DNA of 47,726 bases, from sequence record OL362274.1; one strand, written 5' to 3'. Position numbers and translations under genes: made by a program. Source of the DNA: Escherichia phage HC6. This document shows positions 7,383 through 44,810 of the stretch, piece by piece. The notes under the pieces were generated by a model. It was not told the DNA's origin, did no database searches, and saw nothing but the letters and a program-made list of their open reading frames with translations. Position 1 is the first letter of the stretch, and every line of letters starts with the position of its first letter.

Positions 7383-7423
7383 CCATTGTGATAGAATTAA
7401 TTATTATTTGAACAGGAGGCAGA

Positions 7424-7864
7424 ATGAAACTATCGCAACGCGGCAAAGAACTAATCAAGTCGTTCGAGGGTTTTGAGCTTCGTGCTTATCCCGACCCAGC
7501 GACTGGTGGCGCCCCGTGGACCGCTGGTTATGGTCACACTGGTGCAGACGTTAAGCCCGGAATGACAGTGACGCAGGAGATGGCTAATGCATGGCTGGAT
7601 GGTGACGTGAAGAGGTTTGAGGATGGCGTATCGGCGCTGCTAACCGCACCAACCACTCAGTCGCAATTCGATGCAATGGTGTCGTTGGCATACAACATTG
7701 GTCTTGGCAACTTCCGCAAATCAACCCTGCTACGCAAGCATAACGAGAAATGCTACACCTGTGCTGCCAGCCAATTCCTCGTGTGGAATCGCGCCGCTGG
7801 TAAGGTTATGAATGGCCTGACACGGAGGCGTAACGCGGAACGCGCTATGTATATGGGGCAATGA
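7424..7864 (+). CDS. endolysin (GH24 lysozyme)
   Basis: 146 aa; AGGAGG RBS; LRAYPDP, GYGHTG and LAYNIG motifs resemble lambda R / P22 gp19-type lysozymes. Confidence 0.85.
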   Translation: MKLSQRGKELIKSFEGFELRAYPDPATGGAPWTAGYGHTGADVKPGMTVTQEMANAWLDGDVKRFEDGVSALLTAPTTQSQFDAMVSLAYNIGLGNFRKSTLLRKHNEKCYTCAASQFLVWNRAAGKVMNGLTRRRNAERAMYMGQ

Positions 7865-8100
7865 AAAAGCTAAGCAACTGGCTGCTCGGCGCGTGGATTT
7901 CGTTCTGCTCACTGTTGCAGCTGTGGCCTGATGCAATGATGCATGTGTGGGTAATGATGCCTGATGACCTGAAAGCGGCGCTACCGCCAATCGTGGTTAA
8001 AGGTGTAAGCTACTCAATTATGCTTGTCGGCATCCTCGGCAAAATGCACGGCATGAGGAAGGAAAACCGGAGGCTGCGCGATGATGTCGATTCTCGCTAA
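7861..8100 (+). CDS. putative holin
   Basis: 79 aa with two hydrophobic segments and basic C-terminus; ATGA overlap with endolysin stop; function inferred from position. Confidence 0.45.
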   Translation: MKKLSNWLLGAWISFCSLLQLWPDAMMHVWVMMPDDLKAALPPIVVKGVSYSIMLVGILGKMHGMRKENRRLRDDVDSR

Positions 8101-8572
8101 ATACTGGCGACCACTAGTAATTATTATAATTGTTGCTGCTGGCGCGTTGTGGGTAGCAAATAAAGTATCCAGCTATGGCGAGCAGCAATATGCCGCTGGA
8201 TATGCAAAAGCAATCGCAGACCAGAAGGCCGCAGACAAACAAGAGGAGCAACGACGCAATGCAGAACTGCAAAAGATTCAGGCCGACGCACAGCAAAGGA
8301 TTGATGCTGCGCGTAATGATGCTGTTAATGCTGCTGCTAAGTCTGGCAGGTTGCAGCAACAACTCACCAGTATCCGCAAGCAGCTCGTCGGATATTCCAC
8401 CGCTGAGTCCATTGGCAACCCAGCCGCAGATACCGGAGTTTTGCTTGCCGATGTGCTCAGCAAATCTATCGAAAGAAATCGACAACTGGCAGATTATGCT
8501 GACAGGGCAAGAGAAGCGGGATTAGCGTGTGAGGCGCAGTATAATTCGCTGCGCAATAAAAAAGCCCCGTGA
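8081..8572 (+). CDS. i-spanin (Rz-like)
   Basis: 163 aa; N-terminal TM (WRPLVIIIIVAAGALWVA), then Q/A/R-rich coiled-coil-like region; directly after lysin and holin. Confidence 0.7.
   Translation: MMSILAKYWRPLVIIIIVAAGALWVANKVSSYGEQQYAAGYAKAIADQKAADKQEEQRRNAELQKIQADAQQRIDAARNDAVNAAAKSGRLQQQLTSIRKQLVGYSTAESIGNPAADTGVLLADVLSKSIERNRQLADYADRAREAGLACEAQYNSLRNKKAP
8316..8525 (+). CDS. o-spanin (Rz1-like lipoprotein) embedded in i-spanin gene
   Basis: +1 frame inside 8081..8572; MMLLMLLLSLAG-C lipobox; Pro-rich mature part; 69 aa. Confidence 0.65.
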   Translation: MMLLMLLLSLAGCSNNSPVSASSSSDIPPLSPLATQPQIPEFCLPMCSANLSKEIDNWQIMLTGQEKRD

Positions 8573-22603: not shown

Positions 22604-22680
22604 TGGTGGACACGGACGGATTTGAACCTTCAATCAGCCGATTATTAGTCGGTTGCTTTAACCAATTAAGCTACGCGTCC
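22604..22680 (-). tRNA. tRNA, anticodon AAT (Ile-like) by hand fold
   Basis: 77 nt cloverleaf on minus strand: 7-bp acceptor stem, GCTT/AAGC D-stem, GGTTCAAATCC T-arm, encoded CCA; anticodon and isotype need tRNAscan-SE. Confidence 0.6.
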
Positions 22681-22682
22681 AT

Positions 22683-23180
22683 AAGTGCTGGTTTAAGCAT
22701 TGCCAGCGTGCTTTCTTAACATCCAGCCCCGTAACCCATACGTACCCCTACATATGATTGCGATAATGCTGGATATTAAGTGTTGTGGTGGCCGGTGCTG
22801 ATCTCCGGCATAAGGCGCTTATTCGGCGGCGTCGAGCTTGCTTATTCGCTTGAGCCATCCTCGTGAGTCAGCCACGTCCCACTGCGCATCAGCCTGCGCA
22901 TTCACCACAACGGAAAGAGCACTGATGCGCTCACTTGGGACTCCTTAGCCATAACCCACGGGCTTCTGGTACACCAATGCTCTTACCTGTTGTGTTCCCT
23001 GACTTATTAATCACACCTCAGGGACGCAGTGCGCCGAATTTGTTTACAAGGAATCGGAAGACCTTGCTGACTTACAGGCTATTACGCCGCCATCAGAACA
23101 ACATCATCGTTTGCATTTATCTTTGTGGTCAGTTTCTAAAAAGTCCGCAAAGTCGCTCACGAAAACTATCTGAAATACAA
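22683..23180. other. ORF-free structured region, candidate ncRNA or cis element
   Basis: about 500 bp with no convincing ORF; long imperfect hairpin 22876..22941 and hairpin TCCCTGA...TCAGGGA near 22993..23021. Confidence 0.3.
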
Positions 23181-23222
23181 TCTACACCACAAAATAATCG
23201 CTGTCAACACCTGTGATATAAT
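23181..23222 (+). promoter_or_regulatory. promoter with extended -10 (TGaTATAAT) and upstream AATCTACACC / TGTCAACAC elements
   Basis: nearly same architecture as 24554..24603; 37 nt upstream of major tail gene. Confidence 0.45.
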
Positions 23223-23258: not shown

Positions 23259-23975
23259 ATGGCTATTTGTGCAAATGATAAAGGCGTTCTGGTCGGTCGC
23301 ATGACCCGACTGTTCCTTGCTGAAGGGTGCGGCGACGCAGTTCCGGATGCAGGCGACTGGAAGTATTTAGGCTCAACCACCAGTAAAGGCGTTGACTACT
23401 CGCCGCAGACCACTACGTCGGAAGCGGATACCGCTGGCGGCTTTGTTTCTACTCTCGTTACCAGCTCTGATATGACCATCAGTGCAGAGGTAGAAATCCG
23501 CAAGAATGACCCGAGCGATGAGTTTGGTTTTCATCGTCTGGTTGAGATTTACGCCACCGAACTGAAAGCGCGTCGTCAGCCTTCTTTGTGGGTACGTGAG
23601 GTAACTGGTGCAACTATCGTTACCGCGTACTGCAACATCACCAGCATCAGTTATGAAGGCGGCACCAACGACATCGTAACTGGCGGCCTTGAGTTCAAGG
23701 TTTACGATTCTGACAGCGTTACCGTCGAAAGCCTTGAGCCACTGAAGTTCACCACCGACCTGCAATCAACTGGCAGCACTGGCAGCCCGTTAACTGTTGC
23801 TGTTGAAGGTGGCGTCGCTCCTTACACCTACGTGTGGCGCAAAGATGGCGCGGTTGTTGGCGGCGAATCTGGCGCATCACTGGCAAGCCCAACTGCTGGC
23901 GTGTATACCGTTACGGTAACTGATTCATCTACTGACCCGGAAATTATTATCAGCACGGCGTGCACCGTATCCTGA
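23259..23975 (+). CDS. major tail tube protein with C-terminal Ig-like domain
   Basis: 238 aa; own promoter and terminator; Ser/Thr/Gly-rich C-terminal domain like lambda gpV Ig-like extension. Confidence 0.7.
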   Translation: MAICANDKGVLVGRMTRLFLAEGCGDAVPDAGDWKYLGSTTSKGVDYSPQTTTSEADTAGGFVSTLVTSSDMTISAEVEIRKNDPSDEFGFHRLVEIYATELKARRQPSLWVREVTGATIVTAYCNITSISYEGGTNDIVTGGLEFKVYDSDSVTVESLEPLKFTTDLQSTGSTGSPLTVAVEGGVAPYTYVWRKDGAVVGGESGASLASPTAGVYTVTVTDSSTDPEIIISTACTVS

Positions 23976-23980
23976 TAAAG

Positions 23981-24010
23981 AAAAAGCCCCGAAAGGGGCT
24001 TTGTTTTATT
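23981..24010. terminator. bidirectional rho-independent terminator
   Basis: AAAAAGCCCC-gaaa-GGGGCTTTGTTTTATT. Confidence 0.6.
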
Positions 24011-24188
24011 CTAGTGGCGGATCTGGTAACGGCATCCAGTGGGTCACGCACTCAACAAGCACGTTATCGCAGTAGAAATCCCAATATCTGTCGTAAGCCC
24101 CAGACCAAATCTCTCCATACTCATTGAATACCAGAATGGCTTTAAATTGCTCCGGCATCCGCTCACTACACTTAATCCACTGGCTCAT
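24006..24188 (-). CDS. DUF551-like protein
   Basis: 60 aa; W.KCSERMPE ... VTHWMPLPDPP matches DUF551 signature as recalled. Confidence 0.55.
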   Translation of the reverse strand: MSQWIKCSERMPEQFKAILVFNEYGEIWSGAYDRYWDFYCDNVLVECVTHWMPLPDPPLE

Positions 24189-24328
24189 ATCACCTTGTCC
24201 TCATCAAAAATCACGCCAATAACGCGAAGTAAGTCTTTCGCCATGCGTTCCGCTTCCTCGTAGTCGTAACCTGCATCAACATACAAATCAGTGTAGAAAA
24301 TCAGGTCAGCTTTTGTTTGTTCGTTCAT
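24185..24328 (-). CDS. hypothetical small protein
   Basis: 47 aa (MNEQTKADLIFYTDLYVDAGYDYEEAER...); ATGA overlap with DUF551 gene. Confidence 0.35.
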   Translation of the reverse strand: MNEQTKADLIFYTDLYVDAGYDYEEAERMAKDLLRVIGVIFDEDKVI

Positions 24329-24519
24329 TTCTTGTCGCCACTGTTAACTAATGCCCAAACAAGTGCCGCAACCCATCCAATAAAGCTCCACCCGACAAGA
24401 ATATTCAGTACACAGATTGCTGTCGTGTTTGTGTGCTTGCGTTGCAAAGCCACAAATGATGGAAGAAGATAAACAAATATAACCAATCCAGCAAAAAGCA
24501 ACAAAATAACAACATCCAT
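24325..24519 (-). CDS. superinfection immunity (Imm-like) membrane protein
   Basis: 64 aa; YLLPSFVALQRKHTNTTAICVLNILVGWSFIGWVAALVWAL fits Imm-family pattern as recalled. Confidence 0.65.
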   Translation of the reverse strand: MDVVILLLFAGLVIFVYLLPSFVALQRKHTNTTAICVLNILVGWSFIGWVAALVWALVNSGDKK

Positions 24520-24553: not shown

Positions 24554-24603
24554 GAATCTACATCACCACCTCGCAGGTGTCAACACTACTGAGATGATAT
24601 AAT
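24554..24603 (+). promoter_or_regulatory. promoter with extended -10 (TGaTATAAT) and upstream AATCTACATC / TGTCAACAC elements
   Basis: shares element order with 23181..23222; upstream of tail chaperone and tape-measure genes. Confidence 0.45.
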
Positions 24604-24623: not shown

Positions 24624-25370
24624 ATGCAAAACATGAGCAATCGCACGCCACTAACAGAAATCGGGGAGATGCGCATCTCGCTTTCTGACAGGAGTTTTTT
24701 CTTTAAGCCATCATTCCGTGCCATGAATGAAATTGGCACGCCAAAAGAAATCGTCGAGGTATACGCTAAGCTCAATGGCATTGATTATATTGCGCCGTTG
24801 CAGCACGTCGAATACCTGCCATTTGGCGCGCAGATGCAGGTTATGAAGACCATCAGCAAACCTGTGTATGGTCGCCATGTACTGAGCGCAGCCTATATCG
24901 TCATGCAATCATGCTGTGAAGATGATATTTCTGTGCTGATTGGTGGATGGAAGCCAACACCGCGCGGTGTGCGATACGTGCCGGGAGTAATGCCAATTGG
25001 CGGCACTGGACATTTGCCAGGTGGAACAGGTGGAATTATTGAGATTGCCCGCTCATTAATGGAGCACGGCATTATTGGCAAATCACCACTCAAAGTGCCT
25101 GAGCGTCTGGAAGAGCAGGGTAAGAAAACCACAAATGAGTTTCATGCGTCGCAATACATCATCTCAGCGCGCACGCATTTCGACATGACGCGTGATGAGG
25201 CCGAAAACCTGTCCATGACAGAGTTTCAGATGATGATTAAAAATAAATATCCAGAGCCGAAAGGGTTAACGAAAGAAGAGCGCGCGGCAGAGTACGATCA
25301 GGCTAAAGCAGACCGTGAGCGCATGAAGGCACTGGCTGAACGCAAAGCGAAAAAAGCGAGGAATACATAA
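24624..25370 (+). CDS. putative tail assembly chaperone
   Basis: about 246 aa directly upstream of tape measure; alternative start ATG 24633; single ORF, no frameshift site evident. Confidence 0.4.
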   Translation: MQNMSNRTPLTEIGEMRISLSDRSFFFKPSFRAMNEIGTPKEIVEVYAKLNGIDYIAPLQHVEYLPFGAQMQVMKTISKPVYGRHVLSAAYIVMQSCCEDDISVLIGGWKPTPRGVRYVPGVMPIGGTGHLPGGTGGIIEIARSLMEHGIIGKSPLKVPERLEEQGKKTTNEFHASQYIISARTHFDMTRDEAENLSMTEFQMMIKNKYPEPKGLTKEERAAEYDQAKADRERMKALAERKAKKARNT

Positions 25371-27744
25371 TGGCTGAAGAAGTCGGCGGAATTGTCTATG
25401 AAGTCGGGATGGATGTTAAAGGCCTGAAGGCTGGCGCGACAACAGCCAATAAGACTTTAGATGACCTTGAATCATCAACCAACAAAACCACAAGCGCCCT
25501 TGGCAAGCTGGATAAAAACGCCAGAAATGCTGGCAGCGGAATGAAAAATGCTGGCGGCGCAGCTTCAGGGCTAAAAACGCGGATGACGGCTCTTGCTGGC
25601 GCAATATCCGTGTCACTGATTATCGAATGGGGAAAGCGATTCCTTGATGTTGCCGATAACATGACACAACTTCAGGCAAGGATTGCTCGCTTGTCAACTG
25701 ATGCGAAAACCGCGAACGAAACATTCAGTACACTGGCAAATATCGCCTCGACCACTGGCGCAAGTCTCAGCGACACCACGAAGCTGTGGGAAACATTGAC
25801 GTCATCACTGAAAGAGGCTGGCGCGACAAATGCGCAGGTTCTTAACCTTACTGACACTCTGCAAAAGATAGGACGAATCGGCGGGTCATCAACAGAAGAA
25901 ATGGCGAACGCCCTGCGTCAGTTCGGTCAGTCAATTGCTTCTGGCACAATCCGCGCCGAAGAATTTAACTCCATCCTTGAACAGATGCCTGAACTTGCGC
26001 GCCAGATTGCAGCTGGACTTGGCATTTCAATGGGCGAACTTCGCGCCAGAATGCTTGACGGAAAGCTGACGGCAGAAGATGCACTGAATGCCATTCAGGA
26101 CAGGACAAGCATCGTCAATGCTGAGTTTGAAAAACTTCCTCGCACAATGGATCAGGCCGTTGGTTCTCTTGAAGTTTCATTCTCCAAACTTGTGGTTGCC
26201 GTTAACGATGCCACTGGCGCATCAAAAACAGCAGTAGAGATTATCGACCAGCTGGCAAAATACATTGATTTCCTCGGCGACAAATCAACCAGCACGAGCG
26301 ACAAGATTCTATCTCTCGCCACGGTTATCTCGAAGCTAAACCCAGGCGCATGGGCACAAATGGGGGTTGATGCGCTTTTCGGTGATGATGATATTGAGAA
26401 GCAAAAACAATATAACGATCAAGTCGAGCGATTCGTTAAGGCTTCAAAAGAAGGTTACGAGCAGACAAAGAAACAGGCTGAAGCAACAAAACACCTGAAG
26501 ATTGCACAAGCACCAACCAAAGACAAGAAAGGCAAAGGAAAGGGCAAAAGCGCCGAAGAACGGCAAGCTGAGTCAGTTGCTGAAAAGCTGGAGAAATTAC
26601 GCCAGCAAACCATGCTTAATGCCACATCTACCAGCGAACTCTCCCGCGAACAAGCTATTCTCAACGCGCAGCAATCGCTTGGCAAAGCTGCCACTCAGGA
26701 GCAAATAAAGCTGGCTGGTGAGTACGCTGCGAAAATTTGGGACCAGAAGAATGCACTGAAGGAGCAGGCAGAAGCGGAGAAGGAAAAGCAGCGCATAGAA
26801 AAATCATATCAGGGGTTGCGCGCTATTGCGTCGCCAACGACTGGCATTGACAGTGAATACCAGCAACGTATGGCTGACCTTGACGCATACGCCGCAGCAT
26901 ATCCACAAAAAATCAAGGAGATTGAGCAGACTCGCGCAGCAATTGAAGCACAATACCGCCAGCAGCGAATGGACGCCATGTGGGCAGAGTGGCAGCAGCA
27001 AAGCCTCGGGGCGCAATTGTTCGGTACGGCGCTTGATTCTGCAATGAGCACGGCATCAAATAGCATCACCGGATTGCTGACAGGAACAATGAGCGTTCAG
27101 GATGCCATGCGCAGTCTCGGCTCTACGGTACTCAACTCTCTGGTAAATAGTTTCGTCGAAATGGGTGTGCAGTGGGTTAAATCTGCTGTTATGGGACAGA
27201 CTGCGCAGGTTGCGGCAACAGCAACCACAACGGCGGCGCAAACAGCAGGGCTGGCAACCACAACAGCAGCATCCACGGCGGCAGCAGCCACTACCACGGC
27301 AGCATGGACTCCTGCAGCAATCGTAGCATCAATCGGCTCATTCGGCGGGGCAGCTGCAATTGGGGTAGGTGCCGTTCTCGGAGCTCTGGCGATGGGCATT
27401 GCTGGCAAGCGTAAAAATGGTGGCCCTGTTAGTGCCGGAAGTATGTACGAAGTGGGCGAAAATGGCTTGCCTGAAATATTCCAGGCGTCCAACGGTCGCC
27501 AGTATATGATTCCCGGTAACGATGGCTCAGTTATCAGCAACAAAGATATTACCGGAAGTGGCAGTGGCGTTGTGGTTTATAATAACGTGATAAATAACAG
27601 CTCAGCGCAGGTTAGCAGCAGCGCCAGAGATAACGGTGATGGCAGTGTGACGATTGAGACTATCGTTAGTGATATTTCGGAAAATGGCCCGATAGGGCAG
27701 GCCATCTCTAGAAACTACAACACCAACAGGAGAGCAACCGAATA

Positions 27745-27745
<1 letters not shown>
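25370..27745 (+). CDS. tail tape measure protein
   Basis: 791 aa, Ala/Gln-rich helical repeats, Gly/Ala/Thr-rich hydrophobic stretch near C-terminus. Confidence 0.9.
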
Positions 27746-44750: not shown

Positions 44751-44781
44751 GTTGACGTAGAATCATCATTGATGTAGATTG
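44751..44781. promoter_or_regulatory. promoter region with paired inverted TCTACRYCA motifs
   Basis: GTTGACGTAGAATC and TTGATGTAGATTG 30 nt upstream of ATG 44811. Confidence 0.4.
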
Positions 44782-44810
44782 AACTCATCGGAACAAACGA
44801 GAGTGAAGAG

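Follow-up and report, generated by a model that had tools for sequence, protein, structure and literature searches.

Analysis of a 47,726-nucleotide stretch of DNA from Escherichia phage HC6 (OL362274.1; the whole stretch is referred to below as the window) shows that three small minus-strand genes form an accessory operon, located at a conserved hot spot within the tail-gene cluster. By sequence comparison, the first of these genes is a genuine homologue of T4 Imm, which keeps phages that arrive later from injecting their DNA. Superinfection exclusion is its best-supported function, and we consider this role probable for the first gene alone. The initial annotation had placed three small minus-strand genes in 24006-24519, and ORFs were found at exactly those coordinates (Table 1). 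At both junctions of the cassette the stop and start codons overlap in a 4-nt ATGA, indicating a single translationally coupled operon. The cassette has the major tail gene on one side, and a DUF6246 gene and the tape measure gene on the other. A 3-kb query from the window was 100% identical to ON637251.1 (Escherichia phage 6947), whose coordinates become window coordinates on addition of 23, and in that record all three cassette genes are labeled hypothetical.

Table 1. Features of the three-gene cassette and its surroundings, in window coordinates.
Feature	Coordinates	Strand	Description
Imm-like gene, gene 1 of the operon	24325-24519	minus	64 aa, T4 Imm family membrane protein (predicted)
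47-aa acidic protein gene, gene 2	24185-24328	minus	coupled to Imm; phrog_17424 only
DUF551 gene, gene 3 (last)	24006-24188	minus	60 aa, acidic; PF04448
Sigma-70-type promoter TTGACA-17-TAGATT	24583-24555	minus	promoter scan and conservation
Extended -10 element TGATATAAT	24595-24603	plus	back-to-back with the cassette promoter
Bidirectional intrinsic terminator	23983-24002	both strands	hairpin and U-run, between convergent genes
Tape measure protein gene	25370-27745	plus	791 aa; outside the cassette; inferred Imm target class

Gene 1 had been proposed to fit the Imm superinfection-immunity pattern, and comparison with Pfam agreed. The 64-aa product matched the whole Imm_superinfect profile (PF14373, positions 1-42) with E 1.2e-18 and 67.1 bits; the curated cut-off of this profile is 27.9 bits, and T4 Imm itself (from NC_000866) scores 58.2 bits. 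The product also matched phrog_1039, 'immunity to superinfection' (E 2.9e-24), and BLASTP against T4 Imm gave 34% identity over 62 aa (E 1e-12). In the alignment with T4 Imm, R27 corresponds to T4 R33 and W44 to T4 W50. W44 is invariant among 23 Imm homologues, and the R and W are conserved family-wide, Guernseyvirinae included, so they mark membership of the family rather than a specific mechanism. Because gene 1 is homologous to the experimentally characterized T4 Imm, a role in superinfection exclusion is the natural reading. Members of PF14373 are present in 1810 phage records from very different phage types, and their functions may therefore differ. A literature search found no experimental exclusion test for any Imm homologue beyond the T-even phages, siphoviral homologues included.

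The AF2 model of the gene 1 product (pLDDT 80) contains helices at residues 2-17, 19-26, 32-42 and 46-57, and W44 falls in the loop at 43-45. The Kyte-Doolittle profile shows two hydrophobic segments, and the GRAVY value is 1.26. The model and profile suggest a small helical inner-membrane protein. A sequence search of the PDB with the protein gave zero matches at E <= 10.

T4 Imm is reported to co-purify with the T4 tape measure protein gp29 and to bind its helical-bundle domain, and the substitutions W50A and R33A reduce exclusion (10.64898/2026.03.06.709160). The mechanism was likened to that of colicin immunity proteins and of HK97 gp15, which is cited there as an exclusion protein interacting with the tape measure protein (10.64898/2026.03.06.709160). 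The predicted position of W44 in the modeled loop fits the loop tryptophan reported to face the tape measure protein (10.64898/2026.03.06.709160).

Gene 1 resembles T4 Imm in its PF14373 domain, in the R and W that are kept, and in an identity of 34% that runs along the whole protein. Both are small inner-membrane helical proteins encoded by virulent phages, the location and the phage lifestyle being predictions in the present case. Unlike T4 Imm (83 aa), the gene 1 product is 19 residues shorter and lacks the C-terminal tail. T4 imm sits among DNA-metabolism genes, whereas the present gene lies inside the tail cluster near the tape measure gene, in a siphovirus with a tape measure protein that bears no detectable similarity to gp29. 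The 47-aa gene coupled to Imm has no counterpart in T4.

Selection on the cassette was estimated as NG86 dN/dS over 28-29 distinct alleles, with dS of 0.4-0.6. The ratio was 0.062 for Imm (29 alleles) and 0.038 for the 47-aa gene (28-29 alleles), compared with 0.049 for the major tail gene. The values for the two small genes are near that of the major tail gene, so that purifying selection acts on them as strongly as on a structural gene.

The 47-aa product of gene 2 is acidic (pI 4.1). Its only match, phrog_17424, is a family without assigned function, and searches of Pfam, NCBIfam and PADLOC returned no match. The family occurs in 204 phage records, all of them ~46 kb siphoviruses, and a word-index search with the protein gave 10 clusters, each at least 78% identical. 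HMMER against 1.84 billion representatives gave 10 matches, all short phage ORFs except for one weak repeat match, and none of these representatives was a remote homologue informative on the role of the protein. The 47-aa protein is restricted to this phage group. Its homologue follows Imm in BUCT610 and pYD38-A, and in Klebsiella phages 6991 and F14 it comes first, the locus having no Imm ahead of it. Judged from this gene order, no other member of the slot persists as widely as the 47-aa gene, and its presence does not strictly depend on that of Imm. Both the 47-aa protein and the DUF551 protein are cytoplasmic.

The last gene had been said to carry the DUF551 signature, and here too the Pfam search was in agreement. 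The 60-aa product matched DUF551 (PF04448) over profile positions 1-67 of 68, with E 1.4e-14 and 55.1 bits (curated cut-off 22 bits), and ends in THWMPLPDPPLE (residues 49-60), which includes the HWMPLPxPP motif. The protein is acidic (pI 4.4), and its AF2 model (pLDDT 93) is a small four-strand beta-barrel. A Foldseek search of the PDB with this model returned nothing at E <= 0.001, and a PDB sequence search with the protein gave zero matches at E <= 10. In the literature, DUF551 is a portable domain of lambdoid early regions to which no function has been assigned (for example the Ea22 variant and YfdS), and the supplements of PMC12373910 contain no functional data on it. The lambdoid proteins (Ea22 variant 2, and YfdS of CPS-53) have the same domain, with a W-x-x-C motif at the N-terminus and HWMPLPxPP at the C-terminus. 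In these, DUF551 forms the C-terminus of a larger protein of the early region, whereas here it is a stand-alone protein of 60 aa, encoded in the tail region of a predicted virulent phage.

Comparison of 28 alleles of the DUF551 slot in near-identical genomes revealed 13 types of centre, with ~21% identity between types. The 13 N-terminal residues (MSQWIKCSERMPE) of these alleles are on average 76% identical, and the 12 C-terminal residues (THWMPLPEPPQE) are 80% identical. The DUF551 proteins of relatives show 33-50% identity to the allele in the window. This pattern of sequence identity suggests that recombination between the conserved ends has replaced the centre repeatedly. Such replacement usually marks genes in conflict, and the turnover of DUF551 suggests an arms-race role rather than exclusion.

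The cassette had also been described as bounded by a promoter and a bidirectional terminator; both were detected, and both are conserved in relatives. The terminator hairpin has an 8 bp stem with 5 GC and is followed by a U-run on both strands. It sits in the 30-nt gap that separates the convergent major tail and DUF551 genes. The predicted folding energies are -17.4 kcal/mol on one strand and -13.4 kcal/mol on the other (z -4.7 and -3.5), and none of 200 shuffled sequences folded as well. Across 31 related loci the stem is invariant and the loop differs (TTTC, TATC, TTCC, TATTCA). The Imm ATG is preceded by the SD GAGGTGA, and promoter, SD and terminator are kept in all 15 of the related loci without an upstream insert (15/15). 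The promoter hexamers are retained in the Klebsiella and Vibrio relatives despite a wholly different spacer sequence, and by this alignment are a phylogenetic footprint for promoter function.

An exact second copy of the cassette promoter is present at 23179-23207 (minus strand), and a copy with one mismatch at 44752-44780 (plus strand), just before a run of small plus-strand ORFs that begins at 44788. Resemblance to the copy preceding this ORF cluster suggests that TTGACA-17-TAGATT is an early promoter type. The extended -10 element TGATATAAT occurs exactly twice in the genome, at 23214-23222 and beside the cassette, each time paired with the minus-strand promoter. The divergent pair at 23179-23222 is almost identical to the cassette pair, and serves the major tail gene to the right and a minus-strand tRNA unit to the left. 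The TGATATAAT element next to the cassette probably restarts rightward transcription of the tail genes (DUF6246, tape measure). An Rfam scan of the cassette region for structured RNA detected a tRNA at 22607-22680 and no other structured RNA.

The close relatives of the phage include HC8A, ZCEC08, Bas80, Shigella phage Sf11 (genus Cedarrivervirus), and Salmonella phages Akira and KFS-SE2, among others. The group consists of ~46 kb siphoviruses distinct from the Drexlerviridae. A T1-like (Drexlerviridae) assignment was considered and rejected, the relatives being Cedarrivervirus and Roufvirus-like unclassified Caudoviricetes.

The slot was compared in 30 related loci from GenBank and IMG/VR. 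Its order is an optional gene for a 97-aa secreted protein, Imm, the 47-aa gene, an optional NinX/DUF2591 gene (96-134 aa, PF10765), DUF551 and the terminator. The same three-gene cassette occupies the same slot in Sf11 (gp21-gp23), Bas80 (Bas80_0058-0060) and ZCEC08 (Imm being ORF53), and in the annotated RefSeq orthologues. Some close relatives add the NinX gene or the 97-aa secreted protein; the phage in the window has neither, and its cassette is the minimal form of the slot. Imm is 89-97% identical to the copy in the window in all loci except L031 (82%), and the 47-aa protein is 93-100% identical to that in the window across the related loci. The Imm proteins of BUCT610 (Klebsiella) and pYD38-A (Vibrio) show 46-54% identity and have an N-terminal extension. 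All relatives examined, the distant Klebsiella and Vibrio phages included, have the slot and promoter, with variable contents: Imm is missing at this locus in 6991 and F14, and NinX, HNH and the 97-aa gene are each optional. Because 6991 and F14 keep the slot without Imm at the locus, Imm is dispensable cargo. The 97-aa secreted protein of the relatives was considered as an analogue of Spackle; this was rejected, since it is not similar to T4 Sp and falls in another PHROG.

These comparisons also bear on how the cassette should be described. It had been called inserted between the major tail gene and the tail chaperone gene. The upstream neighbor is indeed the major tail protein gene (phrog_853, E 1e-84). 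The downstream neighbor belongs to DUF6246 / phrog_791 and occupies the place of a chaperone gene, immediately ahead of the tape measure gene; its naming as a tail chaperone is a guess from position. The term 'inserted' does not fit, because the slot and promoter are ancient, being common to the Klebsiella and Vibrio relatives. The cassette had further been called a moron, for which its own promoter and terminator and its opposite orientation speak. ZCEC08, a phage of the same genus, is predicted to be virulent and shows no lysogenic behavior, and the genome record has no annotated integrase or repressor. Since the genus is predicted to be virulent, the cassette is not a moron in the sense of a prophage-expressed gene. 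The term suits the architecture and not the lifestyle, and is usable only loosely.

The tape measure protein matched TMP_3 (PF20155, E 3e-55), and has a strongly hydrophobic segment at approximately residues 646-680, followed by KRK. Comparison with T4 gp29 showed no significant similarity, and a resemblance between the two proteins was rejected on this basis. Target recognition is therefore not simply transferable from T4, and if the mechanism is common to both phages, recognition must have been re-specified.

A related arrangement is found in the Guernseyvirinae (Salmonella virus VSe101, Escherichia phage Snoke), whose Imm homologue shows 41% identity (E 3e-15) to that of the window. There, too, Imm opens a cassette on the opposite strand, which lies between the tail tube gene and the chaperone/tape measure genes and is likewise closed at its far end by a bidirectional terminator. 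The downstream cargo differs, consisting of a phosphoesterase and other genes, and lacks both the 47-aa gene and DUF551. By BLAST, the tail tube proteins of the Guernseyvirinae and the present group are unrelated, and the similarity of their tape measure proteins is confined to the hydrophobic region at the C-terminus (25% identity, E 1e-4).

Another parallel is HK97, a temperate phage in which gp15 is expressed from the prophage and is a true moron. HK97 gp15 belongs to a protein family that we take to be unrelated to Imm. In work from 2012 by Cumby et al., gp15 was reportedly described as a small exclusion protein of the inner membrane, whose gene forms a transcription unit of its own in the tail cluster, beside the tape measure gene. 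The window is like HK97 in having an exclusion-type gene beside the tape measure gene, and unlike it in that the phage is predicted to be virulent. The recurrent placement of Imm would fit a functional tie to the tape measure protein, by analogy with HK97 gp15. T4 imm and the mycobacteriophage homologues do not adjoin tape measure genes.

Taken as a whole, the cassette is best explained as an autonomous operon from which Imm, made early, blocks the entry of genomes of superinfecting relatives by way of the tape measure protein, an account that we hold with somewhat better than even confidence. Host RNA polymerase would transcribe the cassette leftward, using the cassette's sigma-70 promoter and probably at an early stage of infection, and transcription would end at the bidirectional terminator common to the cassette and the major tail gene. 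Imm would enter the inner membrane of the infected cell, such that phages of the same or a related kind adsorbing later could not deliver their genomes. The most likely route is that of T4 Imm, in which Imm, at the inner membrane, would bind the tape measure protein of the incoming phage and keep it from opening a conduit. The 47-aa and DUF551 proteins would be co-expressed small acidic accessory factors in the cytoplasm.

In one alternative explanation, the whole cassette would be a unit for host takeover or counter-defence, with the two acidic proteins as its main effectors and Imm as a co-resident passenger. This would suit the changing cargo of the slot (NinX/DUF2591, HNH and others), the 13 unrelated centre types of DUF551 in near-identical genomes, which are typical of arms-race genes, and the low pI of both small proteins (4.1 and 4.4). 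The 47-aa gene is moreover the one most widely kept in the slot and occurs without Imm, and DUF551 and NinX are classic genes of lambdoid accessory regions. However, neither homology to known anti-defence proteins nor a functional match in PADLOC or Pfam was found, and the fold matches of DUF551 are insignificant. We regard this reading as rather unlikely, and it is compatible with, not exclusive of, entry blocking by Imm. A combination of both ideas, which we hold to be quite improbable, is a module of two layers: Imm and its coupled 47-aa cofactor would block entry mediated by the tape measure protein in siphoviruses, and the recombined hypervariable centre of DUF551, framed by conserved clamps at the N- and C-terminus, would be a determinant of specificity or counter-defence. 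If this were true, the T4 mechanism would reach beyond one type of tail, and would involve a new cofactor in the cytoplasm.

The Imm-family protein could instead have another role in the membrane, either in the timing of lysis, like a holin or antiholin, or in shielding the membrane of the infected cell against tail proteins, whether those of the phage itself or incoming ones. The family name would then be misleading outside the T-even phages. Imm is very small and very hydrophobic with two predicted membrane-embedded segments, as are many lysis regulators; it has weak matches to DUF3302 and to PADLOC 2TM, and its family extends across unrelated phage types, with function tested in T4 only. 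Yet the homology to T4 Imm covers essentially the entire protein, including the residues that were functionally tested, and the gene is far from the lysis genes of this genome, which lie at 7401-8549. The lack of Imm at the locus in some relatives also suits an accessory role better than a lysis clock, and we consider both a different membrane role and a misleading family name to be of low probability. The three ORFs are very short, and their designation as hypothetical in ON637251.1 might suggest chance or decaying frames in an intergenic spacer, with fortuitous motif matches. This is refuted by Pfam E-values of 1e-18 and 1e-14, by dN/dS of 0.04-0.06 at dS of 0.4-0.6, by the conserved SD, promoter and terminator, and by hundreds of homologues in related phages.

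If Imm acts as T4 Imm does, blocking of the tape measure protein would be common to contractile and non-contractile tailed phages, and the recurrent position of Imm beside tape measure genes would make sense. Phages of the present group (ZCEC08, BUCT610) are being proposed for therapy, and an active exclusion gene would affect cocktails of related phages in co-infection. Both the hypervariable DUF551 slot and the 47-aa protein, which is conserved, could be included at little cost in functional screens of phage accessory genes.

Annotation of this cassette is already known from near-identical phages, and ON637251.1 happens to omit it. Sf11 gp21 is annotated as 'putative superinfection exclusion protein; pfam14373' and gp23 as 'DUF551', Bas80_0060 and ZCEC08 ORF53 are annotated as 'superinfection immunity protein', and the RefSeq orthologues carry the labels 'immunity to superinfection' and 'DUF551 domain-containing protein'. 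The identification of the cassette is thus correct but ordinary, and because these annotations exist, current understanding is unchanged. What the present analysis adds is the conservation of functional residues, the estimates of selection, the hypervariability of the DUF551 slot, and the recurrence of Imm beside tape measure genes. Separately, ON637251.1 mislabels the major tail protein as 'fibritin'.

The gene content of the slot that holds the minus-strand cassette varied among related phages. At 24006-24188 of the window and across the related loci L003-L032, the DUF551 alleles had conserved termini and 13 unrelated centre types, and genomes with differing centres were otherwise 90-98% identical. 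The optional NinX/DUF2591 gene present in some relatives is built in the same way: its ends (MKNYEEMSDFEIN ... NPLRAAMIVFLKMNEDKL) are conserved and blocks in its interior vary. In roughly half of the relatives (loci L005, L007, L009-L012, L014, L018, L022-L025, L030 and L032), the promoter is separated from Imm by an additional gene, whose 97-aa product (phrog_2315) has a signal peptide. This gene is absent from the window, and comparison of its product with T4 Spackle revealed no similarity.

The window contains two near-identical copies of a back-to-back promoter module, each consisting of a minus-strand TTGACA-17-TAGATT promoter and a plus-strand extended -10 element (TGATATAAT). A further copy of the minus-type promoter, with one mismatch, precedes a cluster of small ORFs. 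Coordinates are listed in the table.

Coordinates of features in the window and in two Guernseyvirinae loci
Feature	Location	Strand	Remark
Terminator of tRNA unit	22598-22578	-	
tRNA	22604-22680	-	sole tRNA of its unit
Promoter of tRNA unit	23207-23179	-	
Promoter module 1	23179-23222	-/+ pair	precedes major tail gene
Major tail protein	23259-23975	+	
Promoter module 2	24555-24603	-/+ pair	precedes DUF6246/tape measure genes
Tape measure protein gene	25370-27745	+	
Copy of minus-type promoter	44752-44780	+	precedes small-ORF cluster
Imm homologue	L039 3992-4171		Guernseyvirinae
Imm homologue	L040 3854-4183		Guernseyvirinae

With respect to the genes for the tail tube and tape measure proteins, the Imm homologues of Guernseyvirinae have the same position and orientation as in phage 6947, which the window matches. 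Despite this shared placement, BLAST showed no relationship between the tail tube proteins of the two. Similarity between the tape measure proteins was confined to the C-terminal part (residues 627-790, 25% identity, E 1e-4), in which an Ala/Gly-rich hydrophobic segment (~646-680) is followed by a GGPxxAG...GExGxPE motif.

The major tail protein shows likeness to Ig-like or Hoc-like decoration domains in its C-terminal third. The product is labelled 'fibritin protein' in GenBank ON637251. Its match to the major tail protein family PHROG 853 (E 1e-84) contradicts this label, as does its position.

Upstream of the major tail gene, the window contains a second minus-strand unit, with one tRNA. 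This is identical to the tRNA-Met(CAT) of the close relative Bas80 at every base but one: where the Bas80 anticodon is CAT, the one here is AAT, and this change at the first position leads tools to call it tRNA-Ile; the records of two other relatives, HC8A and ZCEC08, carry the same annotation. Elsewhere among the relatives, the slot holds tRNA-Arg plus tRNA-Ser or tRNA-Met. An Rfam search of the ~500 nt that separate the tRNA from the minus-strand promoter (22681-23178) returned zero matches above threshold. Weak, sub-threshold tRNA/tmRNA-like matches at 23033-23191(-) were the only ones in this promoter-to-tRNA region, and may be remnants of lost tRNA genes. Two small plus-strand ORFs are annotated in the equivalent region of Bas80.
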